From contig JBFWNU010000004.1 of NCBI GenBank assembly GCA_050250895.1, forward strand, positions 353,362 through 417,361: a stretch of 64,000 nucleotides of DNA, read 5' to 3'. The stretch is from Vulcanimicrobiota bacterium (GTDB lineage Bacteria; Vulcanimicrobiota; Xenobia; Xenobiales; JADMJV01). Position numbers and translations under genes: made by a program. Under the pieces are notes generated by a model that ran no database searches, was not told where the DNA came from, and saw only the letters and a list, made by a program, of their open reading frames with translations. Of this stretch, positions 1-24,676 are shown piece by piece; positions within the stretch are counted from its first letter, which is position 1, and each line of letters opens with the position of its first letter.

Positions 1-1
1 G

Positions 2-283
2 CCGCAATTTTTCAACATTTTGCTCGGAGAGATGTCTTTCGTCGGCCCCCGTCCGTTTCCCGAGTACCACCTTCGGGTTTTCGACAAACCGTTCCGTCGC
101 CGTCGTCAGAGCGTCTTGCCCGGACTCACCGGCCTGTGGCAAATCCGCGTGCGTAGTGGCGGAGACATCAGGGCTCAGCGTTATTGGGACCTCAAATACC
201 TGGTGGGGCGCTGCCTGATGCTCGACCTGCGCATCTTGTGCGAGACTCCCCTGGTCGTGATCCGGGCCAAAGGCGCCGTCTAG
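2..283 (+). CDS. Polyprenyl-phosphate sugar phosphotransferase (bacterial sugar transferase family), C-terminal fragment; 5' end outside window
   Basis: Frame is open to the window edge; translated tail carries sugar-transferase signature segments SFVGPRP and PGLTGLWQIRVRSG; stop at 281-283. Confidence 0.85.
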   Translation, partial: PQFFNILLGEMSFVGPRPFPEYHLRVFDKPFRRRRQSVLPGLTGLWQIRVRSGGDIRAQRYWDLKYLVGRCLMLDLRILCETPLVVIRAKGAV

Positions 284-369
284 GCTCCGGCAGCGAACCC
301 CGTATCAGCGGGCTTTGCGGCCGGCAGGCTGGGAGGAGATCGTTATTCAACCAGTAATAGTTAGCCCCC

Positions 370-2886
370 ATGCGCAGAGCACGATGCCGTCCCAGCGAAA
401 ACTCTAGCTTCCGGACTCTGGCTGGATTGTTGGTATGCTTGGTCCTGCTGGCCCTGGTGGCTCCAGTCTGGGCTCAACCGACTCCCGTGCCTCCCGCACA
501 GGATGGCCAGCCGCAGCCGTCCCAACAGCAACTGGAGGAAGACTCCGCCGACCTTGGCCAGACGGGCGAAATCCAGGTCCCCCCTCCCCCGGTCACCCCC
601 ACCCAGACGGTGCGAGAACTCAATGCGCATCCTGGCCCGACGATCGGCTCGCCGGACACCTTTCGCAACTCGAGGGTGCTCGACGCCCTCGAGCAATCGC
701 GAGTTCAGCGCCAGCAGCGCCAGACCCAAGAGCTCGAGCGCTTCGGCTCTTCGTTCTTCGAGCGTTCCCAAGAAGAGTTGACCCGGGCCGATGAGGCGAC
801 CGTGCCGGATGACTACAAACTAAGGTCAGGCGACGAACTCAATGTCACCACCTACAACATCAGAGGCGGAGAATCGGTCGACATTTCCCGGGTGGACGAG
901 TCTGGGGTTGTCCAGCTGACGGGAGTTGGCCCGGTGCCTGTGGCGGGCCTCACCCGGCCTCAGGCAGAGACACGCTTCAACAGCCTCATCTCTCGCCAGT
1001 TTCCCAACATGCGGGTGAGGCTTACCTTTACCCGCGTCCCAAAAATTCGCGTTTTCGTGCTCGGAGAAGCCAATCGCCCCGGCGGGTACCTGATGAATCC
1101 CACGGCCACGGTGCTCGACGCCTTGCTCCACGCCCGCGGGCCTTCGCGAGCGGGCAGCTACCGCCGCATCGAATTGCAGCGAGCCGGCCGCACCGTGGCC
1201 ACCTTCGACCTCTACGACCTGTTGATTTTCGGGCGTACGGCCTCGCCCCGATTGCAAAACGGCGACCGAATCTTCGTGCCCCTGGTGGGCAACGAAGTCT
1301 CGATTACCGGCGAGGTGTTGCGCCCTGCCGTTTATGAACTGCGACAAGAGAAGACGCTGGCTCAGCTGATCTCGCTCGCCGGAGGCTTGCGTCCCGAAGC
1401 CTACTCTCCGCGGGTCCAGATCGAGCGAATCGATGACCACAACCTGAGAAAGCTCATCGATATTCCCTTCGACAAGGCAGCCACGACCGCTCTTCGGCCC
1501 GGTGACTTCATCATCATCGAGCCGGTGCTAGAGAACCTGACCAATGGCGTGTTCGTGTCGGGGGCTGTCGAGCGGCCCGGATTCTATGAGATCAAAACCG
1601 GTGCCTCGACGGTGGCCGGGGTTATTCGTCAGGCCCAGGGTTTGACCAACGGCGCCTACGCCCAACACGCTGAGATTTTTCGCTACGTAAGGACGTTTGG
1701 TCCCCACGGAGAAACGCTGATCGACCGCTCGGCCCCCCAGGAGGTCATCGGCTTTGATCTGGCCGCCGCTCTCAGCGGCGATTCGACCAACGACCTGGCC
1801 CTGCTTCCAGAAGACGTGATTGTCGTCTCGACCCGCGAAGAGGCCCTGGTCGACCGCGAGCGAGTCCGTATTCAGGGCGAGGTCAAAAACCCCGGCGAAT
1901 ACCCGCGCTTTGGCAAGATGCGGGTGCGCGATCTGGTCAACCTGGCCGGTGGCATCACCCCTGAGGCCTCGGTCCAGGCCGAGATCGCTCGCCCTGGTCC
2001 CATGGGTAAGATCGAGTTCATCCCGGTCGATCTGGGGGGCGCCATGGAGGGGGGGACCCTCGCCAACAACCCGGTCCTGCAAGACCTGGATGTGCTGATC
2101 GTCAGGCCGCAGCTGCGAGCCAAGCGATGGCCGGCCTCGATCACCTTGCTGGGAGAGTTCAAGCATCCCGGCGTCTATGTCGTCGATCCTGACCGCGAGA
2201 CGCTAGCCGACGTGATCGCACGGGCCGGTGGCCTCACCGCTGAGGCTTACCCGAAGGCAGCGGTGCTCACCCGCCGACGACCCGAGATTCTCTCCACCGA
2301 CCAGAGCGGCCTGGCGGCCATCGTCTTCAAAAACCTGCAAGAGGTAGCGCGCCAGATCGCTCTGGTCGAAAATGCCCGCCTCTCCCGGCAGCCGACCGCC
2401 GCCGGCGCGGCCCGGGTGGACTTTAGAGCCTTGACCGAGGCAGCTACGGCCCCGCCCCGAGAACTGGACTTCGTGCTCACCTCGGGCCGGATCCCCATCT
2501 CGCTGGGCGAGATTCTGGCCTCGGGCCAGGGAGATCCGCGGGTCAAAGAAGGCGACGTGCTCTTTGTTCCGCAAGAGCCTGAAATGGTCATCGTCTCCGG
2601 GGCGGTCGTCATGCCCACCCCGCTGGTCTGGCGCCCAGGCCGCCACGCCGAGGAATACATTGACCAGGCGGGTGGATTTGCCGAGGACGCGGCCACGGAT
2701 CGCGTGCTCATCCTGAGGGTCAGCGGGCAACTGGTCAAAGAGGGGGACGCCGGGGTCTTAGAACCCGGAGACCTCATTCTCGTCCCGCCTCGAGCGCTGA
2801 TCTCCGAGCCCGACGCCTTCGAGCGTTTCTTGAGCGTGCTCCAGGTCATCGCCAACGGAGCCTTTGTCTGGCGGGCCTTCCGATGA
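370..2886 (+). CDS. Polysaccharide export protein, Wza/KpsD-like, with multiple SLBB-type repeats
   Basis: 838-aa ORF with ATG at 370; N-terminal hydrophobic signal-like segment (LAGLLVCLVLLALVAPVWA); Poly_export-like segment (YKLRSGDELNV) followed by several repeats of the GEV..PG.Y / ..AGG pattern typical of SLBB domains. Confidence 0.8.
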   Translation: MRRARCRPSENSSFRTLAGLLVCLVLLALVAPVWAQPTPVPPAQDGQPQPSQQQLEEDSADLGQTGEIQVPPPPVTPTQTVRELNAHPGPTIGSPDTFRNSRVLDALEQSRVQRQQRQTQELERFGSSFFERSQEELTRADEATVPDDYKLRSGDELNVTTYNIRGGESVDISRVDESGVVQLTGVGPVPVAGLTRPQAETRFNSLISRQFPNMRVRLTFTRVPKIRVFVLGEANRPGGYLMNPTATVLDALLHARGPSRAGSYRRIELQRAGRTVATFDLYDLLIFGRTASPRLQNGDRIFVPLVGNEVSITGEVLRPAVYELRQEKTLAQLISLAGGLRPEAYSPRVQIERIDDHNLRKLIDIPFDKAATTALRPGDFIIIEPVLENLTNGVFVSGAVERPGFYEIKTGASTVAGVIRQAQGLTNGAYAQHAEIFRYVRTFGPHGETLIDRSAPQEVIGFDLAAALSGDSTNDLALLPEDVIVVSTREEALVDRERVRIQGEVKNPGEYPRFGKMRVRDLVNLAGGITPEASVQAEIARPGPMGKIEFIPVDLGGAMEGGTLANNPVLQDLDVLIVRPQLRAKRWPASITLLGEFKHPGVYVVDPDRETLADVIARAGGLTAEAYPKAAVLTRRRPEILSTDQSGLAAIVFKNLQEVARQIALVENARLSRQPTAAGAARVDFRALTEAATAPPRELDFVLTSGRIPISLGEILASGQGDPRVKEGDVLFVPQEPEMVIVSGAVVMPTPLVWRPGRHAEEYIDQAGGFAEDAATDRVLILRVSGQLVKEGDAGVLEPGDLILVPPRALISEPDAFERFLSVLQVIANGAFVWRAFR

Positions 2887-2903
2887 TTGCCATAGAGGGC
2901 TAG

Positions 2904-4178
2904 ATGGACCGCCCGCTGCGCCGGATTCATGGCATCGTGTGTATCATGTACATCGCCGATGCCTTCTTCTCGCTTTATGACGAGCCCGGCGTCAGTCTCA
3001 CCGAGAACAATCCGGCCAGCCGAGTTCTCTGGATTTTCTTGATCGTTTCGTCTTTGTTGCTGGCCCTGCCGCGACCCGGCCGCACGAGCCGCATGTTCTT
3101 CAACAACCTGGCGTTGACCGGCTTCGTCCTGCTCACCGTGGCCTCCAGTGCCTGGTCTATTCTGCCGGGCACGACCTTCAGAAGAGCCGTCCTGGCAGTC
3201 TTCACGCTCCAGTTTGCCAGCCACCTTCGGGCCAACTTCAAGCAAGCCGAAGTGTGGGAGTTGCTTCGCACCGCCTTGCGATGGTCACTGCTTTTGTCGG
3301 TGGCGGTTTGCCTGGTCAGACCCGACATCGGCGTGGACTCGCAGTACCACGTGGGGCAGTGGCGAGGTCTATTTCCGCACAAGAATAGTCTGGGCCGGGC
3401 GGCGGCGCTGCTGGGTAGTCTGGCCCTCGGGCACTGGCTGAGTGGGGGCAAAGGTCGCTTCAAGATCGGGCTCGATATGGTATTGTGCCTGGGCTTGATG
3501 GTACTGGCCTTTTCCAGGACCGGTCTGGCCTCGTTTTTGGGAGTCGCAGCCGTGCTGGTAGTACTGCGCATGCTGCAGAACACCAAAGGTCACGACCGCT
3601 GGTTGGCCGCCAGCGCCATTCCGATAGCCACCGGCGTGATCCTGATCGTCTCCGGGCTGATGCTGTCCCTGCTGCCGAGCAACCTGTATGAGGACAAGCT
3701 CCTCACGGGCCGAATCCCCCTCTGGTACACCCTCACCCTGATGGCCCTGGAGAGGCCGCTGCAAGGCTACGGCTATGGCCAGACGATTTTGAGTCCGGCC
3801 GGGCACGGTCTAGAGATCTGGGCCCGGGTGGGGTGGGAAATGGGTAGCGCCCACAACGCCATGCTCCAGGTTCAGCTCGACCTGGGCGTGGTGGGATTGG
3901 CTTGCTATCTGATGGTCTGGCTCACCATCTTCGCTCGGGTGGGTCGCAACCTCACCAGGCCGCGCAGTCTGGTCGAAGTAGGAGTTTGCCTGATGGTGTT
4001 CGTCAACGGCTTGACCGAGATCGGCTCGGCCGCCCTCTCGACCCTTTGGGGTCTTGCCTTCATCCTGCTGGCGTTATCCGACAGGCAAGTCACTCATGAT
4101 AGCGGTCCCGGCCCGGCTCTGCCGGTCGCGTCGCCGCCCTCCGCCTCCCCAGCAGATCTCGAACGGCGTGAGGAATGA
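2904..4178 (+). CDS. O-antigen ligase/polymerase family membrane protein (Wzy-like)
   Basis: 424-aa polytopic hydrophobic ORF; Wzy_C-like segment GLFPHKNSLG ... FSRTGLASF; sits between exporter and glycosyltransferases. Confidence 0.75.
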   Translation: MDRPLRRIHGIVCIMYIADAFFSLYDEPGVSLTENNPASRVLWIFLIVSSLLLALPRPGRTSRMFFNNLALTGFVLLTVASSAWSILPGTTFRRAVLAVFTLQFASHLRANFKQAEVWELLRTALRWSLLLSVAVCLVRPDIGVDSQYHVGQWRGLFPHKNSLGRAAALLGSLALGHWLSGGKGRFKIGLDMVLCLGLMVLAFSRTGLASFLGVAAVLVVLRMLQNTKGHDRWLAASAIPIATGVILIVSGLMLSLLPSNLYEDKLLTGRIPLWYTLTLMALERPLQGYGYGQTILSPAGHGLEIWARVGWEMGSAHNAMLQVQLDLGVVGLACYLMVWLTIFARVGRNLTRPRSLVEVGVCLMVFVNGLTEIGSAALSTLWGLAFILLALSDRQVTHDSGPGPALPVASPPSASPADLERREE

Positions 4179-4887
4179 GACTCCACGGTTCGAGAAGGTA
4201 ACGCTGCCAGACCCGACCCGGTGTCATCAACAGACGGGCCAGCCATTCGAGGCCCAACCGTCCGGTCCAGCGCGGTGGGGTGGGAATCTCGCCCGTGAGG
4301 TAGTCAAAGATGGCGCCGACCGTGATCGAGACGCAAGGCTCCAGGCGATCGAGATTGTGGCCCAGCCAGGTTTCCTGGCGCGGCATGCCCATTCCCACCA
4401 GCAGCACATGGGGCTGGAAAGCGTTGATATCGCTGACCACCCGCTCGTTGACCCGGGGGTCCTGGGGGTCGAAATAGCCGCTGGCGGCCCGAAATTCCAG
4501 GCCGGGGTAGCGGCTGGCTACATAGTCCTGGCTGCGTTCCACGACCTCCGGGCGTCCGCCCAGAGCGTAAACCCTCCACGATCGGTTCAGAGCCCGCTCG
4601 AGCAACGGGCCGATCCAGTCCAGCACGGTGATTCGATGCTCGGCGCGCAGCGGTTCTCCTAACCAGCGCCCCCAGAAGATCAGCGGCATGCCGTCAATGA
4701 AGCAGGAGTCGGCGCGGGCATAGACCGAGCGCATCGGTTCACAACGATGAAAATGGTAGATGCTGTGGAGATTGTGGTTCACGATGAGGTGGGGCGACGC
4801 ACCGACCCCCCGTGAGACATCCTCCAAGAACTCGTCGAGGTTCATCGGGGTCACCTTCACGCCCAGCAACTGGCAGTCTCTAGGCAT
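4090..4887 (-). CDS. WecB/TagA/CpsF-family glycosyltransferase
   Basis: ORF track frame 4090..5118 trimmed to internal ATG at 4887, 2 nt after the stop of the upstream GT4 gene; conserved segments VYALGG and GMGMPRQE; the upstream 77 codons are Pro/Arg/Ala-rich and overlap the neighbouring gene. Confidence 0.8.
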   Translation of the reverse strand: MPRDCQLLGVKVTPMNLDEFLEDVSRGVGASPHLIVNHNLHSIYHFHRCEPMRSVYARADSCFIDGMPLIFWGRWLGEPLRAEHRITVLDWIGPLLERALNRSWRVYALGGRPEVVERSQDYVASRYPGLEFRAASGYFDPQDPRVNERVVSDINAFQPHVLLVGMGMPRQETWLGHNLDRLEPCVSITVGAIFDYLTGEIPTPPRWTGRLGLEWLARLLMTPGRVWQRYLLEPWSLIPHAVRDLLGRRRAATRPAEPGRDRYHE

Positions 4888-6070
4888 GGCCCCGCCTCGG
4901 CCCAAGAAGGCCTCGCTCCTCGAGAGCGTCGAGGACCTGTTGGACGCGGGAGCGCCAGCTGTGCTCAGACTCCACCAGTTGCTGGCCCCGGCGCCCCATC
5001 TCGCTCCAGCGCTCCTGGCCGGCGCAGGCCTCTCGAAGGGCGTTCTCGAGGCTGCCGGCGGTGTGGGCCTCGAAGACGAATCCGCATTCAGCCCTGGCCA
5101 CCAGGGCTCGGGCATCACGAAAGTCCGAGACGATCACGGGCAGCCCGGCGGCTAAATACTCATATAACTTCAGAGGCGAATGATACATCCCGCCCCAGGC
5201 CAGATCTCGTTGCCCCGAGAAGCCAAGATCGCAACCGGCCAGGATCGCTCCAACCTGGCTGGGCGGCACCGGCCCCAAAAACTTGACCTGCTCAGCCAGC
5301 CCCAGCTTGACACTCAACTGCTGGCACTCGCGCAAGCCTACGCCACCTCCGGCCACGACCAACCCATAAGCAATTCCGTCCTGACGAAGCCGGTCCATGG
5401 CTTCGAGTAGAGCACACAGATTCTGCCATCGCTGCACCTGCCCCACGAAACAGATGGTGGGCCCGGCAAAGAAACGACTCGCCTCGGACCCGACTTGCAG
5501 GCGCGAGGCGTTCACCCCATTGGGCACCACCAGAATCTTCTGGTCGGGGATATCGAAGGTGTCGGCCACCAGCGCTTTGAGCTGCTCGCTGACACAGATG
5601 ACCAGATCGGCGGCCGCCAGGGATGTTCTCTGAATCCGGTGAGCCAGGTCGACCAGTTCGAGGGTTCGATACTCGTCACGCGACTCGAGGTGATGAATGC
5701 CGTTGACCTCGACCACCAGGCAGCCGCGGCGACCCAGCCCTTTCAAGAGACAACCGATGGCCTGGAAACTGCCACTTCGTTCGTAAAACACGTCGGCCTC
5801 GCCTAGCATGAAATAGGAGCAGAGGGCGTTGACAGGCCACAAGGCCAATCTGACGAAGTCTGAGGCAAGTCGCGCCGCTCTCGACTTCTGCAGATACTCC
5901 TGGGGATTTCCGCGATTGGGCAAGAAATCGCCGGCGATGTATCGCCGCGTCTCCCAGGCTAGCTCCTCAAAGCCAGCCAGGACTCCCAGGATATGGGTGC
6001 GAGCCCCGTATTGGGGACAATTCTCTCGCAGGGAGACACTCGGGGCTCCGGAAAGATAGGCCAAACGCAA
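4880..6070 (-). CDS. Glycosyltransferase family 4 (group 1 GT)
   Basis: 396 aa; GT-B C-terminal domain pattern (ICFVGQV ... GLVVAGGG ... LPVIVSD ... ECGFVFE); tightly packed with neighbours. Confidence 0.85.
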   Translation of the reverse strand: MRLAYLSGAPSVSLRENCPQYGARTHILGVLAGFEELAWETRRYIAGDFLPNRGNPQEYLQKSRAARLASDFVRLALWPVNALCSYFMLGEADVFYERSGSFQAIGCLLKGLGRRGCLVVEVNGIHHLESRDEYRTLELVDLAHRIQRTSLAAADLVICVSEQLKALVADTFDIPDQKILVVPNGVNASRLQVGSEASRFFAGPTICFVGQVQRWQNLCALLEAMDRLRQDGIAYGLVVAGGGVGLRECQQLSVKLGLAEQVKFLGPVPPSQVGAILAGCDLGFSGQRDLAWGGMYHSPLKLYEYLAAGLPVIVSDFRDARALVARAECGFVFEAHTAGSLENALREACAGQERWSEMGRRGQQLVESEHSWRSRVQQVLDALEERGLLGPRRGHA

Positions 6071-6073
6071 GGC

Positions 6074-7462
6074 TTAGCGCTCCTCGTCGAGTCGAAGAGT
6101 GACTTCAGCCCCGCCGGCCTTCAGGGTGGTCTTGAGACGCTGGCTGCGGCCGCCGGCCTCGACGACGATCTCATATTCGCCGAGAAACCCAGGAACGGTG
6201 AACTCACCCTGGCTATCGGTGACCCCGTCAGCCCTGGTCCACCAATCGTTATAGACGAGCTGCTTCCAGGTCGCCAGACCCGGCTTTTCGGTGCCATCCT
6301 CACGATAGAAGGGTGAATTGTGGAGCCAGTGCGAGGGCCCGTCGAACCCCCAGACGACGAAGCCGGTCGTGGCCGGGCTGCTGAAGCAGGCGGTCATGTA
6401 GTCGCGCAGGTAATCGGCTTCGAGCTGCTCCAGCTCGGGACCGGGACGGGTCGTTGGAGCCGTCCGCCAGCGTTGCTCGAAGGTGCCCGTCGCTTGCGAG
6501 GCTTGCAGGCGCACGTCGTATTCGGTGACCTCGAGGGCCACGCCCAGGCTCCCGAGTCGCTCGAGCCGGTCGAGGACCTGGGGAATCCCGGCCAAGGAGC
6601 CGATATGGTGAGACTGCAGGCCCAGTCCGTCCACCGGCGCCTGGCGCTTCTGCAACTCTTTCATCAGCTGGGTTACGGCCACCAGCCGGGACTCTTTCAG
6701 GTCACCGCTACAAAGCTTATGCTCGTTGACGAATAGGCGAGCCTCGGGCGCGAATTGGTGGGCCGCCACCAACCACTCGGCCGCCCCCGCCGCGCCCAGG
6801 CGGGCGAACAGGTCACTGTTATCCGAGGGTTCGTTCAAGACGTCCCAATCATCGATGGCTGCAAACGCCGGATCGCCGATGGTCTGCTCGAGATGGTGCC
6901 GCACTTGCTGCCGGATCTGCTCATCGGACGTCCCCGCCAACTCCTGGGGAGTCGCCTTCTTGCGGCCCCGGTTCCAGACCAGCACATGACCCCGCACCCG
7001 AAAATCGTTGTCCTTGAGCCATTTGAGGGCTGAAAGCGAGGAGACCTTTCTCTTCTGGACCTTCTCGGGAGTGTCCCAGGTCCAGTTGTAGAAGACATTC
7101 AGGGTCGCATAATTGAAGAGTTCTTTGAGACGCTCACGGTAGACCTCACTCGGCTGGCCGTCGGCCATCAACAGTTCGGCGTTGACCTGAGTCCCGAAAC
7201 GATACGCGTGCCCGGTCATGCGCACCCGGACCCTGGCCCCGCTCAGCGGTCCCGCCTCGTCCTCGACCTTGAGCTTCAGGTCGGCTTTGCGATACTTCTC
7301 GATTCTAGCCTGGGCGGGCCCACGCCAGTCGGCCCGCGGATCGTGCCCCTCGTAGTCGTGGGGAGGATCAGAACGAAGCCCCAGCACCAGACCGGTTAGC
7401 GACAGACCGGCCAATAAAACCAGGGCTCCCAGGCTCAAAGCACGCCGCGGCCCAAAGCTCAC
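6074..7462 (-). CDS. Secreted glycoside hydrolase, GH10-like catalytic domain with C-terminal beta-sandwich extension
   Basis: N-terminal signal-like segment (LSLGALVLLAGLSLTGLVLG); acid/base region DDWDVLNEP and nucleophile region LEVTEYDV matching the GH10 WDVVNE / ITELD pattern; 4-bp start/stop overlap with Wzz-like gene. Confidence 0.75.
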   Translation of the reverse strand: MSFGPRRALSLGALVLLAGLSLTGLVLGLRSDPPHDYEGHDPRADWRGPAQARIEKYRKADLKLKVEDEAGPLSGARVRVRMTGHAYRFGTQVNAELLMADGQPSEVYRERLKELFNYATLNVFYNWTWDTPEKVQKRKVSSLSALKWLKDNDFRVRGHVLVWNRGRKKATPQELAGTSDEQIRQQVRHHLEQTIGDPAFAAIDDWDVLNEPSDNSDLFARLGAAGAAEWLVAAHQFAPEARLFVNEHKLCSGDLKESRLVAVTQLMKELQKRQAPVDGLGLQSHHIGSLAGIPQVLDRLERLGSLGVALEVTEYDVRLQASQATGTFEQRWRTAPTTRPGPELEQLEADYLRDYMTACFSSPATTGFVVWGFDGPSHWLHNSPFYREDGTEKPGLATWKQLVYNDWWTRADGVTDSQGEFTVPGFLGEYEIVVEAGGRSQRLKTTLKAGGAEVTLRLDEER

Positions 7463-8685: not shown

Positions 8686-8770
8686 TGTTCATAAGCTTTA
8701 GCCGCTCCTGCCATCGAAAGCCGAGCAGAGCGAGAGGACCTGGTCGCGCCAGGAGGAAGCGGGAGCGACC

Positions 8771-13270: not shown

Positions 13271-13366
13271 CCCAGGGCTGCCTGTTCGTTAGCGGTCTCA
13301 TTCGCAGGCCTGGCTCGGTGGGGGTCGAAGGTCGCCCCCAGTCCACAGGTAGGCCGGCGATCCCAG

Positions 13367-14635: not shown

Positions 14636-15381
14636 AGCAGGCTGATACCGCCGTCCACCACCAGCGTCTGGCCCTGAATCAGGTCGGCCAGGGGGCTCGA
14701 CAGAAACAGGACACTGTCGGCCACATCGTCACAGGTCAGCTTCCGTCCGGCCGTGAGCAGGTGCTGGTCGACTGTTTCGAAGAGAGCCTCGGGCAAGGCT
14801 TTAGTCGATTGGGTTCGCACCAGCCCGGCCAGCACGACATTGAAATTGATCTGCGGAAACTCCAGAGCCAGGTGACGCGTCAGGCTCTCCAAAGCAGCTT
14901 TCGAAGCCCCGATCATGCCATAGTTCTCGATGGCTTTGCGAGCTCCGTGGCTCGACAGGCTCACCACCTTGGGTCGTCCCGAACCGGCTTGCATCCAGGG
15001 CAAGGCGGCCTGCACCAGACTCACCAGGGCCATGGCGTTGACGTTCATGGTGGTCTTGAACTGCTCCGGAGTGATCGAGCGCAGCGAGTGAAAACCGCCC
15101 CGGGCCACATTGCTCACCAGGATGTCCAGTCGGCCGAATCGTTGACCCACAAAGTCGAGCATGGCCTCAATGTCCTCGGCTTCGCCGATGTCGGCTTTGA
15201 CCACCACCGCGTCTCGGCCCAATTGCTGCACCTCTTCGGCCACCTGCTCGGCGGCCCTGGGCGAGGCCAGATAGTTGATGACCACGTCGGCCCCGGCCCG
15301 AGCCAGCTTGAGGGCGCAGGCCCTCCCGATGCCGCGCGAGGCTCCCGTGACCAGCGCCACCTTTCCGTCCAATTCGATCAT
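14632..15381 (-). CDS. Short-chain dehydrogenase/reductase (FabG-like)
   Basis: 249 aa; Rossmann motif VTGASRGIG near N-terminus; 4-bp overlap with PKS stop. Confidence 0.9.
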   Translation of the reverse strand: MIELDGKVALVTGASRGIGRACALKLARAGADVVINYLASPRAAEQVAEEVQQLGRDAVVVKADIGEAEDIEAMLDFVGQRFGRLDILVSNVARGGFHSLRSITPEQFKTTMNVNAMALVSLVQAALPWMQAGSGRPKVVSLSSHGARKAIENYGMIGASKAALESLTRHLALEFPQINFNVVLAGLVRTQSTKALPEALFETVDQHLLTAGRKLTCDDVADSVLFLSSPLADLIQGQTLVVDGGISLL

Positions 15382-18300: not shown

Positions 18301-21300
18301 TCGAAATGATCGATGCTTCCGAGCCCTCTCTGGGTGGTCGTCGAGCGCGCCTGGGGCAGCCGGTCGACGCATTCGAAGGCGGCTTCGAGGCGGGCCCACT
18401 GGAGGGCCCGCTGGCGACGCGGGTGGTCGACCGAAGTCACGATCACATTGCGCTCCTTCAAATTTTGGCGGGCCAGTTGAGTCAACACCTGTTTAGGGCC
18501 CACTTCGACGAGCAGGCCGACTCCGTCGTTCACGAGTTGATCCAGGAGCTGACCAAATCGGACCGGCTCGACCAGTTGCCGAACCAGATTCTGGCGGATG
18601 ACCTCGACCTGGGTAGCCGGCTGATTGGTCACGTTACTGTAAAACAGGATCGTGGGTGGACGCAGCTCGAGCCTGGCCAGCCGGGCTTCGAGGGCCGTCT
18701 GAGCCGATGCCACCAAAGGAGTGTGAAGGGCGCCCGGAACCTTGAGCCGGCGAGTGGGCATGCTGTCTTTTCTCAGCTCGCTCTCCAGGGCGGCCAGCTG
18801 ACTGTTAAGGCCGCCCACCACCGTCTGACCGGCGGCGTTATAATGGGTGAAATAAAGTCCTAGCTCGGCCACCAGAGGCTCGAGCCGTTGGGGAGGCGCG
18901 GCCACGGAAAGCAGACCTCCGTCGGGCGAGGCTGCTAGCAGAGCCTGAGCGCGGACCTGGGTCAGCTCCAGAGCGTCTTCGAAGGTCATGACCCCGGCCG
19001 CCACCAGGGCAGGAATCTCGCCAAAGCTGTGGCCACACACACAGTCGGGCCGATAGCCTTGCTCGTCGAGCACGGCGAAAGCGATCTGATCAGCGATCAA
19101 GACGGCCAACTGGGTGACCACCGGGTCGGCGTCAAGGCGCTCATCCGCTTGCCAGGCCAGGAGTCCAAAGCCAGGCAGGCCCATCTTCTCGAGGGCAGCG
19201 TCGGCCCGGCGCACCACGGCTGCCGCGGCCGCGGACCCGCTCACCAGGTCTCGCAGCATGCCTTGATACTGAGAGCCCTGACCCGAGAAAAGATAAGCGA
19301 TCCGCGGTCGAGCACGGCCGAGTTCGCAGTAGAAGATACCCTGCTCTTCGAGCAGGCGCCGGCCCTTGGCTTCGGCCAACTGGTCAGCTGCCAGAGCCAC
19401 ATTCTGGGCCAGGCGAGGCTGGTCGGGAGCCACGGCCACCAGGCGGACCGGGTCGGCCTGCGCCAGGCCCTGGCGACCCTCGCGAAGGTTGGTCGCCAGT
19501 TGGTTCGGGTCGTGGGCACTGTAGCGAGCCACCCGGGCGGTGACGGATGACCGGGGGCCGGCGCCCTCGAAGATGAGCTGGGCAGCCTGGCCGGTCTCGG
19601 CCAGGCCGGCCAGCACCACTCTCTCTTGCGGATGGCACAAGCTAGCTCTCAACAACGAGAGCATCCCCCCGGCCGCATGCAGAGCCCCGAATTGGGCGGC
19701 CAATGAGGGCAAGAGGGGCTTGCCGCAGACCCGCTCCAAAACCGGGGCCAACTCGGCCGAGGGGGCATCAGCCAGGGCAAGGCCCGGGTCAGACAAGGCA
19801 GGGCCGACCACCAATTCGAGGGCCGACTCGGGGGTGAGTCCGCTGGCGAGTTCTGCCGTGTGCAAAAGGCCATAGATTCGGTCCCCGTCCTGCTGGGCTC
19901 GGTCGAGGGTCTTGAGGATGACCACTCCGACCCCTTCGCCTGGCAACTGGGCGCTCAAACGACCTTTGAGGGCAAGACTCTCGAACCCCACCAGGTCCAT
20001 GGAGTGCTGGCCGGCCGCCACCACCACGGCTGAGCAATCGCCGCCCCGCAGCAGGTCACAACCCACCTTCAAGGCCGCCTCGGACGATGTCTCGCCCACA
20101 TCGAGAGCCAGGGCTCCACCGCGCCAATCGTGGGCTTTAGTCAATCGTGAAGCGAGAGAGCTACAGGTAAAGCCTCCCGTCTCGTCGAGCAGTGCCGAGT
20201 ATCGCTCGAAGAAAATCCGGTCGAACTGCTCGAGCAATCCGGGCTTCGAGAGGCCCAACTCAGCCAGCAGCCTGGCCACCTCACGGCGAATCTCGGCGTG
20301 GCGAAAGCCCACTTGCATCTGATTGCCGAAGTCCGAACAAAAACTCGCGCCCACCACCACGGCTGTCGAGTTTGCCTCGAGTGGGGAGCCCAGCTCTGCC
20401 AGGGCCTGATTGGTCGCATCCAACAGCATCAGCTGGACCGGATTGGCCCGCTTGACCTGCTTGGGAGGAATCTTGTGGCCGACGGCGTCGAACTCGAAGT
20501 TAGTGATGTAGCCACCGCGACGGGTGGGCGTATGCCAGGGCTGGAGCTGCTCGGCCAGGCCGGCGTCACTGGGCCAGCGACCGGCCGGCGGTTCGCCGAG
20601 TTGGGACTGGCCGCTGCCGAGCAACTCTTTCAACTCGCCCAGGTTGCGAGCGCCGGGGACGACGACGCCGCGCCCGACCACCGCCACCAGCGGCTCGTCG
20701 GCGGCCACCGGCTCGACCGGTCCGCCTGGCTCTTCGACCACCAGGTGAACGTTGAGACCGCCCACCCCAAAGGCGCTGACACCGGCTCGGCGAGTCTCTC
20801 CCTGACGGGGCGCAGGCCAATCGGACGGCTCTCGCTGGACCACGAAAGGTAGCCGCGACCAGTCCACTCCGGGGTTGAGCTGGTCGACGTTGATGGTGTG
20901 GGGAATGCCGCGGTGTCTCAAGGCCAGCACGACCTTCAACAAACTGGCCAGTCCGGCCGTCTCGAGCGTATGCCCCAAATTGGACTTGACACTGCCGATG
21001 GGTATCTGGCGTCCTTTCAGATGAGGCCCGAAAAAGGTCGACAAAGACTCGAGTTCGGTGGCGTCACCCAGCTGAGTGCTGGTGGCGTGGGCTTCGATGT
21101 ACTGGACGCTGGCCGCGTCGACTCCGGCGTAGCAACGTTGCAGCGCCTCGAGCTGTCCCTCGGCACGGGGGGCCCACAGACTGCGACCGCGACCATCCGA
21201 AGACAGACCGATCGAGCGGATCACCGCTTGCATCGAATCCCCGTCGCGGCGGGCCGCATCGGCCCGCTTGAGGACCATTGCCACCACTCCTTCGGAGCTG

Positions 21301-22088
21301 ATCAGGCCGTCGGCTTCGGCATCGAACGGGCGCGAGCCGGACGCGCTGCACGATTGGGCGTGGGAAAAGAGAATGAGGCTCTCCGTCTTGTTGTAGGAGG
21401 ACCCTCCGACGATGGCCAGGTCGATTTCGCCCCGGGTCAGAGCCAGGGCGGCCAGGGAGAGAGCCACCAACGACGAGGCACAGGCGGCGTCTACCACCAG
21501 CTGAGGGCCGGCCAACCCCAGTTGCCGGACCAGCAGGCCCGCGATCCATTGGGCCTCGAGACACGGTTTGCCTTCCCCGTCGCGGCGAGGCCGTCCGCGG
21601 CGTAGCTGGCCGGTCAGGGCTTGCATGGCGGCCTGACGCGTCTGGGTCGGCAAAGCGCGAAAATCGGGCAAGCACTCGAGCAACTCCGCCACCTGAGCGG
21701 CCAGGGTGGCTACCACCAGTTCTCCCCCCCGGGGCGTTCCTCCGGAGTGACCGGCATAGACACCGACTCGCTGGCCTTGCAGCCCGTCAGCATAGCCCGC
21801 CTCGGCCAGCGCTTCCAGAGCCACATCGCAAAAGATGCGGTGGCTCAAGTCATAGGAATCATCTCCCGAGCGGGCCTGGCAAGACTTGAGGCAGCCGCCG
21901 ATGCTGGAGTAAGTCTTTCCCACCTGACCGCGGGTCGAATCAAAGTAAAGTTCTCGGTCCAGTCGCTCGGGGGGCAACTCGCGAACCGCATCATGGCCGT
22001 TCCAGAGCAACTCCCAGAATTCGGCCGGGTTGTCCGAATCGGGCAGGCGGCAGCCGCACCCCAATATCGCGATAGGAGCGATCTTCAT
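15378..22088 (-). CDS. Type I polyketide synthase, single module: KS / KS-like / AT / ACP / KR / DH
   Basis: 2236 aa; KS DAACASS + HATST + GHT; AT GQGSQ + GHSFGE; ACP LGIDSI; KR TGGARGIT + YSAAN; C-terminal HRVEDVPVLP hot-dog motif; 4-bp overlaps with flanking genes. Confidence 0.9.
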   Translation of the reverse strand: MKIAPIAILGCGCRLPDSDNPAEFWELLWNGHDAVRELPPERLDRELYFDSTRGQVGKTYSSIGGCLKSCQARSGDDSYDLSHRIFCDVALEALAEAGYADGLQGQRVGVYAGHSGGTPRGGELVVATLAAQVAELLECLPDFRALPTQTRQAAMQALTGQLRRGRPRRDGEGKPCLEAQWIAGLLVRQLGLAGPQLVVDAACASSLVALSLAALALTRGEIDLAIVGGSSYNKTESLILFSHAQSCSASGSRPFDAEADGLISSEGVVAMVLKRADAARRDGDSMQAVIRSIGLSSDGRGRSLWAPRAEGQLEALQRCYAGVDAASVQYIEAHATSTQLGDATELESLSTFFGPHLKGRQIPIGSVKSNLGHTLETAGLASLLKVVLALRHRGIPHTINVDQLNPGVDWSRLPFVVQREPSDWPAPRQGETRRAGVSAFGVGGLNVHLVVEEPGGPVEPVAADEPLVAVVGRGVVVPGARNLGELKELLGSGQSQLGEPPAGRWPSDAGLAEQLQPWHTPTRRGGYITNFEFDAVGHKIPPKQVKRANPVQLMLLDATNQALAELGSPLEANSTAVVVGASFCSDFGNQMQVGFRHAEIRREVARLLAELGLSKPGLLEQFDRIFFERYSALLDETGGFTCSSLASRLTKAHDWRGGALALDVGETSSEAALKVGCDLLRGGDCSAVVVAAGQHSMDLVGFESLALKGRLSAQLPGEGVGVVILKTLDRAQQDGDRIYGLLHTAELASGLTPESALELVVGPALSDPGLALADAPSAELAPVLERVCGKPLLPSLAAQFGALHAAGGMLSLLRASLCHPQERVVLAGLAETGQAAQLIFEGAGPRSSVTARVARYSAHDPNQLATNLREGRQGLAQADPVRLVAVAPDQPRLAQNVALAADQLAEAKGRRLLEEQGIFYCELGRARPRIAYLFSGQGSQYQGMLRDLVSGSAAAAAVVRRADAALEKMGLPGFGLLAWQADERLDADPVVTQLAVLIADQIAFAVLDEQGYRPDCVCGHSFGEIPALVAAGVMTFEDALELTQVRAQALLAASPDGGLLSVAAPPQRLEPLVAELGLYFTHYNAAGQTVVGGLNSQLAALESELRKDSMPTRRLKVPGALHTPLVASAQTALEARLARLELRPPTILFYSNVTNQPATQVEVIRQNLVRQLVEPVRFGQLLDQLVNDGVGLLVEVGPKQVLTQLARQNLKERNVIVTSVDHPRRQRALQWARLEAAFECVDRLPQARSTTTQRGLGSIDHFDATRPRLERVLGEDSLSGKTRTTAIDARAQAFLLDHVADLTGYPRSALKLEWELEADLGIDSIKRTQLLGELRDAFGLDTSDKELANLRSLKDILEHIGVTEAPTEAEAPLLPRVSGQAYESARLRGRAQSQAIRAALRHDALKVFPWQRRPGKDLEAGLDPATLEELRGLAEGAGVHLYNLIGYKERHGTLPGSTPDQTQRYLMRMVECPLPLSPTRSLGGASLIIGDNALSRELASRLRGPVHILDTHRALTELKRGLEALGPLPHLFITTAWVPGELERPEHYTARITTPFWLCQEWLRRVKGDGLVDEATVVAVTRLGGGFGFGTPIEGPDGGFLAGLLKSMRIENWVAGHRDLTVKVIDCGPDISASDAGQRVLRELCHRNYELEIGEIAGQRALVTAEPQPVDDRDGQAVLPRGNWVCTGGARGITAHVARELAGRFGLKLHLIGRAPGPSHPPEWRARWLQDRRGLKLEVMDTARSQGAANPVKSWEAVEKGLEIEAALVALHEAGLEAHYHSCDLSDRDRLAQTLQAIRADGPIRGVLHGAGATRDSKFEQKDHQKVGECLGAKVLGTHNLMSLMAADPLDFFVAFGSISGRFGANGHADYSAANEMMAKLVAYYRQQRPEVGAVTFHWHAWGDVGMAVKGESQLGLELVNMNFMPAAEGVAHLIAELQAGAPRAEVLITDEHYYRRFYHAELFETQQAARPLLGTSNQVWLDPEQEAFLRDHRVEDVPVLPLVVALELACEAQSRGPGPIGLRRVRPAGFLKFHEGRPRQVEVARDDNTVRLLYAQLARDGTVLEARRTLLEVELVNEMPVESLACPEVPDQWEPVAYSDSGQMYHGPSLRTLRRYQIEGETLWGELVAPPLVELAGSHRSTVGWRLPSAILDGCLYAAGILAWKSVREGHTVPATIGELWVGRLTRPGERCVVRVQWIGEERFEIHLWGDDGQLMARAHDYRLAWLGVPNRIGA
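15381..16226 (-). other. PKS dehydratase-like hot-dog domain, approx. residues 1955-2236
   Basis: HRVEDVPVLP (HxxxDxxxxP variant of the DH HxxxGxxxxP motif) at ~1993-2002. Confidence 0.55.
16344..17651 (-). other. PKS ketoreductase (KR) domain, approx. residues 1480-1915
   Basis: NADPH-binding VCTGGARGIT (~1685-1694) and catalytic YSAAN (~1871). Confidence 0.75.
17994..18236 (-). other. PKS acyl carrier protein (ACP) domain, approx. residues 1285-1365
   Basis: Phosphopantetheine attachment motif ADLGIDSI (Ser ~1324); only one such motif found. Confidence 0.75.
18399..19301 (-). other. PKS acyltransferase (AT) domain, approx. residues 930-1230
   Basis: FSGQGSQ at residues ~934-940 and active-site GHSFGE at ~1019-1024. 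Confidence 0.8.
19854..20693 (-). other. PKS second KS-like segment lacking catalytic Cys (chain-length-factor-like), approx. residues 466-745
   Basis: KS-like N-terminal half (VAVVGRGVVVPG, NPVQLMLLDA, LDVGETSS in place of Cys motif, GEGVGVVILK) that then loses KS similarity. Confidence 0.5.
20733..22082 (-). other. PKS ketosynthase (KS) domain, approx. residues 3-452
   Basis: Active-site Cys in DAACASS (residue ~203), His in EAHATST and NLGHT. Confidence 0.8.
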
Positions 22089-23458
22089 GCGGCCCCTAGT
22101 AGATCGACGACGTGCATCAGCATTTTTAGCGCTTCATCCAGGCGCTCGGAGTCCCCGACGAGCACCAGCTCACCTGCATAGAGAGCTTGCTCTGGGGTCA
22201 GCTGGCGGCCTGCCAGGTGAGCCAGCGTAGGCAGGCTGCAAAACGCTTCAGGCGCGCATTCGACTCTTGTCAGGGGAGTGCGTCCCGTTTCGGCAAAACC
22301 CCATTGTCCCCCTTCGGGTCCGGGCACGGTCAAAAAGAGCCGGGGTTCTGAGTTTGAGGCCAGCGGAATTCGCGAAAGTCGCCGGGCCAGATCCCACTCC
22401 GGCGCAGCCTGAAAGCGATGTTCCAGGGCGAAACCGACCAGCCGTTTAAGCGCCTCGCCATCCAGACGAGGGCAAGGCACGCCACTGTGCTCGAGGGTCA
22501 GCTGGCAGTCAAAGGTCGGATGGTTGCTGAGATAGGGTCGATAGGTCGACACCGCGGCCGGCCCGTCGAGCGATTGAACCGATGGCGGTTGGTCATCCTC
22601 GCTTCGACAGGCGCGCACAGCGTCATACAGAGCTTGGAAGCTGGTGGGATGAGGATTGGTCAGATGATAATATTGCTGGGCCGAGCGCTCCTGGCCCAGC
22701 AACGCGATGACCACCTGCGAGACCCAGTCCACCGGAACCAGGTTGATCCCGTCCTCGGGGTCTTCGACCCCTACCGTTTCTAGTAGTGAACGACTGCTCG
22801 AGGCCGAGTTCAGCCAGGTCAGCAAGAGGAGCGGGTACGCTCCCTGAAAATTCGGGGTGTAGCCGGTGGAAGACTCGCCTACGATGATGGAAGGACGATA
22901 GATGGTGAAACGCCGCAGAAACTCGGCCTGGGCAACCAGCGACTCGGCCAGGGCCTTGCTGCGCTCGTAGTCATTGTTGAAGACCTGGTGAAGGGGCACG
23001 GGTCGGGGCTCAAGGTTGGGAACGGTGGCCCCGCAGACGTAGGCGGTCGAAATCAAGTGAAACTCGTCGAGGTCACACCCGCGACTCAGTTCGAGCAGGC
23101 GGGCGGTTGCGTCGACATTGGTCAGATAAGGTTCTCCACTGCCATCGGCTCGAAACTTCACGGTGGCTGCCGAATGCAACACCCGGCAGCAGTGGTTCTT
23201 GAGCCACTCACGAGCCTGCTCGTCAAGACCGAGATCGGGTTGGCGCAGGTCACCCTCGATGAGCTGGGGACGAGGGAGCTGGCGGGCCAGCCCTCTTTCC
23301 AGTCGCTGGCAACAAACCTCGATCCTTTCGGCTGCAGACGCTCCGTTCGTCGGGCGAGCCAAAACCGCGAGGTTCAAGCCTTGCAATAGACCGTCACGCA
23401 TCAAAAACTGGCCCAGCAGGCCGGTTGCTCCGGTGAGTAGCGTAAAGGTTCTATCCAT
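22085..23458 (-). CDS. Stand-alone thioester reductase-domain protein (NAD(P)-dependent fatty acyl reductase-like)
   Basis: 457 aa; LLTGATGLLGQFL Rossmann motif at N-terminus, YERSK catalytic-type motif; no ACP segment; stop overlaps PKS start by 4 bp. Confidence 0.7.
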   Translation of the reverse strand: MDRTFTLLTGATGLLGQFLMRDGLLQGLNLAVLARPTNGASAAERIEVCCQRLERGLARQLPRPQLIEGDLRQPDLGLDEQAREWLKNHCCRVLHSAATVKFRADGSGEPYLTNVDATARLLELSRGCDLDEFHLISTAYVCGATVPNLEPRPVPLHQVFNNDYERSKALAESLVAQAEFLRRFTIYRPSIIVGESSTGYTPNFQGAYPLLLLTWLNSASSSRSLLETVGVEDPEDGINLVPVDWVSQVVIALLGQERSAQQYYHLTNPHPTSFQALYDAVRACRSEDDQPPSVQSLDGPAAVSTYRPYLSNHPTFDCQLTLEHSGVPCPRLDGEALKRLVGFALEHRFQAAPEWDLARRLSRIPLASNSEPRLFLTVPGPEGGQWGFAETGRTPLTRVECAPEAFCSLPTLAHLAGRQLTPEQALYAGELVLVGDSERLDEALKMLMHVVDLLGAA

Positions 23459-23532
23459 TGATGCTTACCAGTTCTTGGCGTCGCGCCCGACTAGCCCGGT
23501 GTCGACCGGCATCGCCCAGCGCCGGGATGACG

Positions 23533-23590
23533 CAAGTCTAAGACAGTATACGAGATCCTCCGAGATTTCAAGTCTTTGGCCAAGTCTTCA
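23533..23590. promoter_or_regulatory. Three direct copies of CAAGTCT (plus two CGAGAT) in the region upstream of the thioester reductase-PKS-SDR operon
   Basis: Copies at ~23533, ~23569 and ~23581 in the 130-bp gap between the hydroxylase gene end and the reductase start codon (23458, minus strand). Confidence 0.3.
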
Positions 23591-24676
23591 AGCCTGACCA
23601 CGGGTCTCGATGGTGGGTCTTTCGATAGCGGTCTGGGCTTCTTTCCAGCGAACTCCACCGGGCAAGAGGTTGTAGGCTCGCTGGAGTCGAGCGATGGCGC
23701 GGGTTTCGGCCGTCGACAAACAAGGGTGCCACAGGTTGAGAAAGAGGACCACCCTGAGCTGATCGCTGTGATTCCAGACCTCGTGCACGAAAGCGTCGTC
23801 AAACACCAGCACTTCGCCCTCCTCCCAGGTGGCCACCTGACCGCCGACTCGCAGGCCACAGTGGTCGGGCACCAACAGACCCAGATGGAAGCGAAGAATA
23901 CCGTTGATGGTGCCTACATGAGGAATGATTCGGCTCTGGGGGTTGAGGGCCGAGAACAGGATGAACTCTTTCTCGAGCCGGGGCAGACTGGCCAGCAACC
24001 CGCTCGTCAGGGGACAGCGTCGACAGTTGTCTTCCACCGCCTCACCCTGAATGTAGAAGTGGAAGGTGTTCCAGCCCGGCATCAGGTTGCCGTACTCCGT
24101 GCGATAGTTGCCAAAACCGCGCGGCTCCGCCAAGAGATCGTTCAACTCGTGGCGAATGGTCTGGCAATGCTCGCGCAGGATGGAGGTCCAGGGAAAATCT
24201 GAAGCCTGGTAGAGCCGGCGGGCGGGAATGCCAGGCAAAAAGAAGTGGGGGCGTTGATGGGGGTCGGTAAACTCGGTGCAAGGCCAATCGTCTTGATGGA
24301 AAAAGACGTCGAGAAAGCCGGACCGGTGGAACAGCGCTTCGGCCACGTTGCGATATCCGAGCCTGGCACAACCCCGTTGGAACGTGGCGTGGGCGTCCAG
24401 TCCGAACACCGCTCGGGCGAAGGCGTCGGTCTGGGCTGGTCGGAACTGGTTGGCCAGGTCACGCCAGAACCGGGCCGTGGGGTTGCTGACGAAGGCCCCT
24501 CCCAGGGCCCAGAGCCGATGCAGCCCCCACACCGACAGCCCGAGCGCGGTGGGGCCGCTCGCCGCCACCCTGGCCCAGACCCGGCGCAGCCAGGCCGGCA
24601 GACGCACCGGAGAACCATCCAAACCCAGCTGGTCGTAGCTCACCTGCATCAATTGTTCGAAAGTAGGTTGGGCCAC
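23588..24676 (-). CDS. Asp/Asn beta-hydroxylase-family Fe(II)/2-oxoglutarate oxygenase (LpxO-like)
   Basis: 362 aa; C-terminal cupin segment IPHVGTINGILRFHLGL ... DDAFVHEVWNHSD ... NLWHP resembling the aspartyl/asparaginyl beta-hydroxylase family. Confidence 0.65.
   Translation of the reverse strand: MAQPTFEQLMQVSYDQLGLDGSPVRLPAWLRRVWARVAASGPTALGLSVWGLHRLWALGGAFVSNPTARFWRDLANQFRPAQTDAFARAVFGLDAHATFQRGCARLGYRNVAEALFHRSGFLDVFFHQDDWPCTEFTDPHQRPHFFLPGIPARRLYQASDFPWTSILREHCQTIRHELNDLLAEPRGFGNYRTEYGNLMPGWNTFHFYIQGEAVEDNCRRCPLTSGLLASLPRLEKEFILFSALNPQSRIIPHVGTINGILRFHLGLLVPDHCGLRVGGQVATWEEGEVLVFDDAFVHEVWNHSDQLRVVLFLNLWHPCLSTAETRAIARLQRAYNLLPGGVRWKEAQTAIERPTIETRGQA

Follow-up and report, generated by a model that had tools for sequence, protein, structure and literature searches.

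Gene content of the locus

The window analyzed here, a 64,000-nucleotide stretch of contig JBFWNU010000004.1 (assembly GCA_050250895.1, positions 353,362 to 417,361), comes from a soil bacterium of Vulcanimicrobiota, a little-known phylum formerly named Eremiobacterota or WPS-2. Its first 24,676 positions hold a 16-gene locus in which a polysaccharide gene set (2-12,038) abuts a predicted lipid module (12,035-24,676) built around an iterative type I polyketide synthase (PKS). The original prediction, made from the DNA sequence without database searches, had named the gene families encoded here, and these assignments and their positions are borne out by the listing of open reading frames (ORFs) and by Pfam and NCBIfam profiles.

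The locus had been described as a nearly uninterrupted gene run. By coordinate check, all five of the same-strand start/stop overlaps cited for it are real (4880-4887, 7459-7462, 12035-12038, 15378-15381, and 22085-22088), and a sixth lies at 10893-10896; the genes, however, form six units whose strand switches from one unit to the next rather than a single operon, and a glycoside hydrolase gene at 6074-7462 had been omitted. In order, the units are polyprenyl-phosphate glycosylphosphotransferase (PGT)-wza-wzyC (+), gnvr-GH10-GT4-GT26 (-), the sulfotransferase gene (+), GT1-GT4-wzx (-), the acyltransferase gene (+), and the hydroxylase gene with thioester reductase (TR)-PKS-enoyl reductase (ER) (-), where GH and GT denote glycoside hydrolase and glycosyltransferase families. 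Three convergent gene pairs overlap at their 3' ends, at 4090-4178 (Wzy_C/GT26, 89 nucleotides [nt]), 9664-9667, and 14632-14635; these overlaps leave no space for terminators, so that the two converging transcripts of each pair must either collide or extend into one another. A promoter scan of 6000-25999 returned no promoter-like sites, and terminator-like sites were at shuffle background, which makes the scan uninformative on operon boundaries. The GC content is even along the window (0.60-0.66), and tRNA and Rfam scans of the window found no feature; a horizontally acquired island was rejected on the grounds of this even composition and the lack of an integrase and of a tRNA in the window.

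The lipid module centers on the PKS (15378-22088, minus strand), a PfaA/HglE-like protein of 2236 amino acids (aa) with the domain order ketosynthase (KS), chain length factor (CLF), acyltransferase (AT), acyl carrier protein (ACP), ketoreductase (KR), and dehydratase (DH), as delineated with Pfam. All catalytic motifs are intact, among them C203, H334, and H373 of the KS with the motif HATSTQ, GHSFGE of the AT, and S1324 of the single ACP. The CLF is a further KS-like domain that lacks the cysteine of the active site, reading LDVGETSS where the KS has DAACASS; the earlier type I PKS call is confirmed, with this Cys-less domain to be added to it. PDB entry 6riw, a KS-CLF didomain structure from a polyunsaturated fatty acid (PUFA) synthase, aligns with residues 6-695, and 22 full-length homologs share 43-55% identity with the protein. 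The NCBIfam PfaA model scores 584 bits on the PKS against a cut-off of 1010, and identification as a PUFA synthase (Pfa) was rejected on the basis of the single ACP, the PKS-type DH (PS-DH), an ER of the short-chain dehydrogenase/reductase (SDR) type, and the lack of Pfa partner genes; a Pfa system would instead have tandem ACPs, a FabA-like DH pair, a FabK-type ER, and the partner proteins PfaB/C/D.

The PKS is flanked by two genes that overlap it. The trans-acting enoyl-ACP reductase (14632-15381, minus strand) is a FabL-like SDR that matches NCBIfam FabL at E = 3e-75 versus about 1e-40 for FabG and carries the ER signature Yx6K (Y154 and K161), which is kept in 43 of 44 PKS-adjacent orthologs. 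The signature and the best match together mark this protein as an enoyl reductase rather than a ketoreductase, so that the earlier call, right as to the SDR family, can be narrowed to the FabL type. On the other side lies a stand-alone TR (22085-23458, minus strand; NAD_binding_4, E = 4e-43; TIGR01746) with the motifs TGATGLLG and YERSK. Its best PDB match is MxaA (4u7w), a four-electron, alcohol-forming reductase. The module ends with a lipid hydroxylase of the Fe/2-oxoglutarate type (23588-24676, minus strand), similar to OlsC and LpxO (Asp_Arg_Hydrox, E = 3e-45; OlsC, E = 7e-35; LpxO, 2.5e-22), which has a conserved N-terminal extension of ∼150 aa.

The remaining two genes of the module encode transferases. 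A stand-alone acyltransferase of the condensation superfamily (13367-14635, plus strand; 422 aa) bears the motif HHSCCDG at residues 110-116 and has no predicted transmembrane (TM) segment. It belongs to no Pfam family of its own; compared with the PDB, a profile of 26 family members matches PapA5 (8s6l, E = 2e-19; 1q9j, 9e-16), condensation (C) domains of nonribosomal peptide synthetases, and, more weakly, wax synthases (WSD structures, E = 1e-8). An exhaustive search places at least 668 cluster representatives (clusters at 50% identity) in this family at E ≤ 1e-10, and a word-indexed search, with the single sequence or the 26-sequence profile, returned only the protein itself and two true relatives. 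An AlphaFold2 model computed from a three-sequence alignment was unusable (mean predicted local distance difference test score, 41.7). The last gene (12035-13270, minus strand) encodes a GT1 enzyme resembling macrolide and sterol glycosyltransferases (EryCIII-like_C, Glyco_transf_28, and UDPGT; NCBIfam Rgt/MGT; motif HHGGVGT), for which we propose the role of a lipid glycosyltransferase that bridges the two gene sets. Judged from sequence, the module would constitute a complete reducing iterative chain builder with reductive release, hydroxylation, O-acylation, and glycosylation.

The polysaccharide set begins with the 3' end of a PGT gene (2-283, plus strand), which is cut by the window start; its frame-2 translation is Bac_transf/WbaP-like (TIGR03025, E = 2e-28). 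It is followed on the same strand by a Wza-like outer-membrane polysaccharide export (OPX) protein of 838 aa (370-2886) with an N-terminal signal or TM segment, a Poly_export domain, and five SLBB domains (Pfam; NCBIfam EpsE type), and by a polytopic membrane protein of the Wzy_C family (2904-4178; Pfam Wzy_C, E = 2e-14; ∼9 predicted TM segments), either a repeat-unit polymerase or a WaaL-like ligase. On the minus strand lie a GT26 enzyme of the WecG/TagA/CpsF type (4090-4887; PF03808, E = 6e-48; EpsA-like by NCBIfam, E = 2e-34), the ATG of which at 4887 overlaps the stop of a GT4 gene (4880-6070; Glycos_transf_1/Glyco_transf_4), a GH10 hydrolase with a single TM segment as N-terminal membrane anchor or signal (6074-7462; Glyco_hydro_10, E = 4e-31) that probably trims the polymer, and a Wzz-like polysaccharide co-polymerase (PCP) without a kinase domain (7459-8685; Pfam GNVR; NCBIfam eps_transp_fam/chain-length determinant), with TM segments at 47-65 and 371-389. 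A sulfotransferase dependent on 3'-phosphoadenosine-5'-phosphosulfate (PAPS) (8771-9667, plus strand; Sulfotransfer_3/_1) carries the PAPS-binding motifs PKCGTTS and RNPIDLAYS. Finally, a Wzx-type flippase (9664-10896, minus strand; Polysacc_synt PF01943, E = 6e-18; ∼9 TM segments), the start of which overlaps the stop of a second GT4 gene (10893-12038, minus strand; Pfam and NCBIfam), is connected through it to the lipid module: the TTG start of this GT4 gene at 12038 overlaps the GT1 stop by 4 nt, so that GT1, GT4, and Wzx form a chain of 4-nt overlaps. With PGT, Wzx, PCP, and OPX all present, the set reads as a capsule or exopolysaccharide (EPS) pathway of the Wzx/Wzy type, the predicted product of which is most likely a sulfated heteropolysaccharide made on polyprenol diphosphate.

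Conservation of the lipid module and its association with glycan genes

Neighborhoods were examined for full-length PKS homologs at 41-54% identity and two planctomycete homologs, together with 80 loci obtained by scanning species-representative genomes, by BLAST and with custom hidden Markov models (HMMs) built on Pfam-labelled examples; individual loci are given here by L numbers. The TR-PKS-ER trio, with overlapping stops and starts, is invariant in every full-length PKS homolog context examined and is found in Vulcanimicrobiota, Gemmatimonadaceae, Acidobacteriota, and Planctomycetota. Some genomes encode TR and PKS as one protein (PF07993 inside the PKS, in single ORFs); several planctomycete and acidobacterial loci have such a fusion with TR at the PKS N terminus (L083, L076, L080, L012, and L043). 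The trio is accompanied in most loci, Planctomycetota included, by a PapA5-like gene beside the PKS and a Rieske oxygenase gene; of the acyltransferase relatives, P0122 and L090 carry PapA_C matches. No PapA5-like gene was detected within 10 kb in several loci, among them L085, L086, and L087. The LpxO-like hydroxylase of the window recurs in L086 (60% identity, same position) and L091, and its role is taken in most other loci by the Rieske oxygenase. A search begun from the acyltransferase recovers the same module with an adjoining sulfotransferase gene in L093, where the PKS is split in two genes, KS-CLF and AT-ACP-KR-DH (229-7949). Radical SAM genes adjoin the module in L003 (17657-19315), L087 (17724-19145), L092 (1943-3613), L076, L080, and L083, those of L003 and L092 with a B12-binding domain. 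Elsewhere in the window, tblastn found no Rieske oxygenase, phosphopantetheinyl transferase, radical SAM, or CysNC/CysD gene.

The module is also found repeatedly in the company of glycan genes. Glycosyltransferase genes lie within 10 kb in all 12 non-redundant non-planctomycete loci, 11 of which hold a dedicated glycan assembly or export gene as well; nine of these were detected by HMM (PGT, Wzx, Wzy_C, Wza, Wzz/Wzc, or Wzm), and Pfam adds Wzi in L003 and a weak O-antigen polymerase match in L001. Among 19 large planctomycete loci, six have such a gene within the same distance. By a rough estimate, a glycan gene would be expected by chance in a few percent of 20-kb neighborhoods, and the association lies far above this value. 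The gene combination also recurs in unrelated genomes, which speaks for more than chance. The original prediction had offered, as a pattern that would speak against it, PKS blocks that always occur without polysaccharide genes, and these counts refute that pattern.

In several loci, the two kinds of genes share an operon. For example, the Eremiobacterota isolate SZAS-1 (L088/L022) possesses an operon of the order TR-PKS-ER-GT1-Rieske-PGT-Wzy_C in which ER and GT1 overlap by 4 nt; the GT1 gene immediately 3' of the enoyl reductase is the counterpart of the GT1 gene in the window (36% identity), so that this glycosyltransferase gene belongs to the lipid operon in SZAS-1 and, in the window, to the operon of the flippase. 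In a second Vulcanimicrobiota genome (L002), ER overlaps a PGT gene by 8 nt, and in Thalassoroseus (L090), a PapA-like gene overlaps a Wzy_C gene by 4 nt, an order that is identical in L013. The glycan genes themselves have counterparts in these loci: the Wza-like exporter has orthologs in L002, L086, and L088 (54-58% identity), the PGT tail is 54-60% identical to small PGTs adjoining the module in L002 and L088, and a GH10 gene is also found at the edge of L002. Across the three Vulcanimicrobiota genomes, lipid and glycan genes diverge alike (PKS, 46-48%; ER, 58-60%; Wza, 54-57%; PGT, 54-60% identity), a pattern consistent with inheritance as a unit.

Sulfation genes recur in the same neighborhoods. 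Stand-alone sulfotransferases are present in the window and in L085, L093, L079, L083, and L058, and the PAPS synthesis genes CysNC/CysD lie beside TR in L001. In two loci, GT2-sulfotransferase fusions adjoin the PKS module, in both domain orders (L091, 21101-22879; L092, 21446-24715), which suggests that the (nascent) glycan is the target of at least part of the sulfation.

Candidate product and competing explanations

Taken at the level of genes and their arrangement, these observations make it likely that the lipid and glycan gene sets are functionally linked. We infer the following route from the gene content. The PKS, together with the trans-acting FabL-type ER, would extend a long, saturated acyl chain attached to its only ACP; the OlsC/LpxO-like dioxygenase (the Rieske oxygenase in most relatives) would add a hydroxyl; the MxaA-like TR would release the chain as an aldehyde or alcohol; the PapA5-like acyltransferase would esterify a hydroxyl; and GT1 would glycosylate the alcohol. 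The product of such a route would be a glycerol-free glycolipid with a long-chain (hydroxy)alkanol as its base. The cell would make it along with the polysaccharide, for which it would serve as membrane anchor or acceptor, or else as an obligatory partner layer, the relation that glycolipid and polysaccharide layers have in the heterocyst envelope. The best explanation as a whole is such an alkanol glycolipid, made with and possibly anchoring a sulfated Wzx/Wzy polysaccharide, and we put its chances at about even; that the lipid in particular is a long-chain (hydroxy)alkanol glycolipid appears equally balanced. A glycosylated, possibly sulfated lipid had already been suggested for this locus. 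The translational coupling of lipid and glycan genes and the recurrence of sulfotransferase and PAPS genes are in keeping with that suggestion, the product itself being a prediction. No support was found for the accompanying idea that the lipid itself passes through the Wzx/Wzy/Wza route; the PGT implies a conventional pathway on polyprenol operating in parallel.

The strongest competing explanation is that the two gene sets are neighbors and not partners, the module making a free envelope or storage lipid, such as a long-chain diol or a wax (di)ester, possibly sulfated, beside an ordinary Wzx/Wzy EPS locus. Several observations weigh in this direction and against a functional link. In the window, the gene sets are divided among six units that alternate in strand, and the operon of the PKS, separate from the glycan operons, contains no glycan gene. 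No glycan assembly gene lies within 10 kb of the module in 13 of the 19 large planctomycete loci; with about two-thirds of the planctomycete copies in this state, the lipid module can evidently function alone. With a PGT present, synthesis of the polymer on polyprenol does not, in turn, require the PKS lipid. The export route differs by locus, being Wzx/Wzy in some, Wzm/Wzt in L092, and an MsbA-like ABC transporter in L091, and this variability is as compatible with a loose association as with a fixed mechanism. The lone Wzy_C protein at 2904-4178 fits a polymerase or a ligase alike, and the sampled loci are phylogenetically non-independent, including three from Vulcanimicrobiota and at least two from close Gemmatimonadaceae-type relatives. 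A reciprocal search of metagenome contigs, begun from Wza, returned one close match on an 8-kb contig and one distant match, with too little flanking sequence to be telling. Furthermore, a reductase resembling fatty acyl reductases (FAR) combined with an HHxxxDG acyltransferase is the classic logic of wax ester synthesis, in line with the WSD structures among the profile matches, and L093 and L079 have a sulfotransferase alone next to the PapA5-like gene. Against mere adjacency stand the loci in which lipid and glycan genes share one operon with overlapping codons (L088, L002, L090, L013, and L091), the presence of a hallmark glycan gene in nearly all non-planctomycete and about one-third of the planctomycete loci versus the few percent roughly expected by chance, and the GT1 gene, which shares an operon with lipid genes in L088 and, in the window, with wzx. 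On balance, adjacency without partnership seems possible, if on the unlikely side.

Within the preferred explanation, that of a glycolipid made with the polysaccharide, a more specific version assigns the joining step to the Wzy_C protein, which, acting as a ligase, would transfer a polyprenol-built, often sulfated glycan to a polyketide alkanol or diol glycolipid anchor unrelated to lipid A. The protein carries the motif HNx9Gxx[GTY] (H-x10-G) at residue 317, common to L002, L085, and L088, which is characteristic of WaaL ligases; this is a lead and not a test. Its best NCBIfam match, a weak one, is a putative O-glycosylation ligase, and a PDB sequence search with the protein found no relative. 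We put this version forward tentatively, as a distinctly unlikely one. If it is true, Vulcanimicrobiota, Gemmatimonadota, Acidobacteriota, and Planctomycetota would possess a second widespread lipopolysaccharide-like molecule.

A different division of labor would have the PapA5-like enzyme move the PKS-bound acyl chain onto sugars of the repeat unit or polymer, yielding an emulsan-like or acyl-trehalose-like product with TR as a side branch. PapA-family enzymes acylate sugars as well as diols, as do the mycobacterial PapA1-3/Chp enzymes, and the match of the family profile to both PapA5 and C domains would suit such a role. The discrete ACP and KS genes that adjoin the acyltransferase gene in L002 and L091 suggest carrier-bound acyl donors, and the coupling of the PapA-like gene to Wzy_C in L090 and L013 points the same way. 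However, in nearly all loci TR overlaps the PKS or is fused to it and is its most closely linked partner, and reductive release thus looks like the main route; moreover, the finished polymer is periplasmic, whereas the PapA5-like protein has no predicted TM segment, and the several loci in which no PapA5-like gene was detected within 10 kb are difficult to accommodate. Acylation of the glycan is therefore improbable as the main function of the module. Lower still in probability, and by our estimate scarcely credible, is an alternative carrier, in which a phosphorylated PKS-TR product replaces undecaprenyl phosphate for the PGT (compare the mannosyl phosphomycoketide of Pks12 and the "specific lipid carrier" long suggested for rkpA): small PGT genes are indeed coupled to the module (the ER/PGT overlap of L002, Rieske-PGT in L088, and PGT-Wzy_C in L091) or flank it in planctomycetes (L033, L045, L076, L083, and L089), but no lipid kinase or phosphatase recurs in the examined loci, GT1, the PapA5-like acyltransferase, and the hydroxylase would have no role, and the PGT tail in the window is that of a typical EPS-type polyprenyl-phosphate transferase.

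Relation to known systems

By analogy, the system would work most like the heterocyst glycolipid pathway and also resembles the PapA5-dependent phthiocerol dimycocerosate and phenolic glycolipid (PDIM/PGL) pathways, while departing from the defining features of both. The parallel to heterocyst glycolipids drawn in the original prediction agrees with the set of PKS, reductase, and glycosyltransferase domains, and the HHxxxDG protein cited there is PapA5-like at the profile level. The heterocyst glycolipid pathway of cyanobacteria is encoded by the hgl island (HglE/F/G/D/C/A/B and HglT) (PMC11804610). KS of the PfaA/HglE type, CLF, AT, ACP, KR, DH, ER, thioester reductase, and glycosyltransferase are all present in both systems, the product logic is that of a long-chain fatty alcohol or diol glycoside, and the heterocyst envelope pairs a glycolipid with a polysaccharide layer. 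In contrast to the hgl system, a single protein of 2236 aa here combines the domains, the reductase and the FabL-type ER being in trans, a PapA5-like acyltransferase and an oxygenase are added, the lipid genes are embedded in a sulfotransferase-associated Wzx/Wzy locus, and the hosts are not cyanobacteria. No DevB/DevC/DevA-like genes were detected by Pfam in the window, which has no DevBCA/HgdD-type exporter.

With PDIM/PGL synthesis, the system shares an HHxxxDG PapA5-like acyltransferase next to the PKS, a glycosyltransferase of the GT1 type, to which the PDIM/PGL rhamnosyltransferases belong, methyltransferases in several related loci, and a predicted product built on a long hydroxylated alkyl chain that carries ester and sugar groups. 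Here a thioester reductase releases the chain, the host cells are diderm and possess a glycan pathway of the capsule type, and the window contains no modular Pps/Mas, FadD26/28-type AMP-ligase, MmpL7/MMPL, or DrrABC genes.

Two further systems are partial precedents for the combination of a PKS with polysaccharide or sulfation genes. In Sinorhizobium and Burkholderia, type I PKSs (rkpA/wcbR) are found in capsule loci and are thought to supply the polysaccharide lipid (PMC3908369). A type I PKS and an SDR gene inside a polysaccharide locus are common to both; however, the rkpA/wcbR proteins are cis-AT-like (DPQQR/HGTGT), with a conventional domain order, and keep company with capsule genes of the ABC transporter (Kps) type, whereas the PKS described here has HATSTQ and an ACP that precedes KR and DH, its partners are TR, the PapA5-like acyltransferase, and GT1, and the window encodes the Wzx/Wzy route, with no KpsM/T/C/S-like genes. 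The swf clusters of sponge symbionts encode the PKS SwfA, the reductase-sulfotransferase SwfB, and the radical SAM protein SwfC (PMC3908369). They share with the present module an iterative single-module PKS, reductive release, a sulfotransferase, and the radical SAM genes that recur at module loci. SwfA differs in its domain order (KS-AT-DH-ER-KR-ACP) and KS signature, reductase and sulfotransferase are fused in SwfB as opposed to genes ∼12 kb apart here, and PapA5-like, GT1, and glycan assembly genes are unreported for swf. The claim that the combination is undescribed accordingly needs to be tempered by these precedents: no description of the module, or of its link to Wzx/Wzy loci, was found in the literature, and in a planctomycete genome paper such clusters bear no more than the antiSMASH labels "hglE-KS" or "type I PKS."

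Surrounding genes and implications

Beyond the locus, the window contains several further gene groups. Divergent from the hydroxylase gene, a unit of four overlapping genes (24980-29066, plus strand) encodes a 290-aa protein of no family, a methyltransferase, a 487-aa polytopic membrane protein without a Pfam match, and a short GH1; no homologs of this unit were detected in related loci, and the 487-aa protein could be an unrecognised polymerase. A second glycan-related cluster (54250-63469) comprises FemAB-like Acetyltransf_6, GNAT, YdjC-like, and GT2 proteins, a DUF2079 membrane protein with tetratricopeptide repeats, and two proteins of 539 and 552 aa without a family match. Among regulatory genes, a diguanylate cyclase with three receiver domains (32192-34444, plus strand) lies ∼8 kb from the locus, and GGDEF/EAL or cyclic-nucleotide genes are found within 10 kb in L085 (6517-7614), L087 (23231-25300), and L086 (19047-20801 and 24049-24756); judging by these gene neighborhoods, second messengers may control the locus. 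An extracytoplasmic function (ECF) sigma factor gene (37274-37816) adjoins an anti-sigma-like zf-HC2 gene on the opposite strand (36402-37262), with a GAF-GAF histidine kinase gene next to them (36402-40264 in all), and an OmpR-type two-component pair lies separately at 41400-43475. Finally, a BrxC/BrxD-family ATPase gene (50123-52141, plus strand; Pfam, E = 3e-118), overlapped by a long antisense ORF (50849-52030), apparently stands alone between genes for a NosD-like beta-helix protein (49074-50843) and a 649-aa protein of no family (52154-54103).

The only cultured member of the phylum, Vulcanimicrobium alpinus, is a diderm whose polar lipids include four unidentified glycolipids and no identified phospholipid (PMC9758169); this composition is compatible with the proposed product, although unspecific. 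The occurrence of the lipid module beside sulfated-glycan genes, in other phyla as well as in Vulcanimicrobiota, points to an undescribed lipid-linked surface glycan. The carriers belong to four phyla from dry, oligotrophic soils and waters that are abundant in the environment and poorly studied. Provided that the coupling is real, the locus contains the genes for glycerol-free long-chain-alcohol glycolipids of a class not described before and suggests a new way to tie a surface polysaccharide to the membrane. It would then also offer a genetic handle on the glycolipids of the sole cultured Vulcanimicrobiota strain and a function for a class of PKSs that has been mined in planctomycetes as product-less "type I PKS" or "hglE-KS" clusters, and the large PapA5-like family would gain its first functional context outside actinobacteria.

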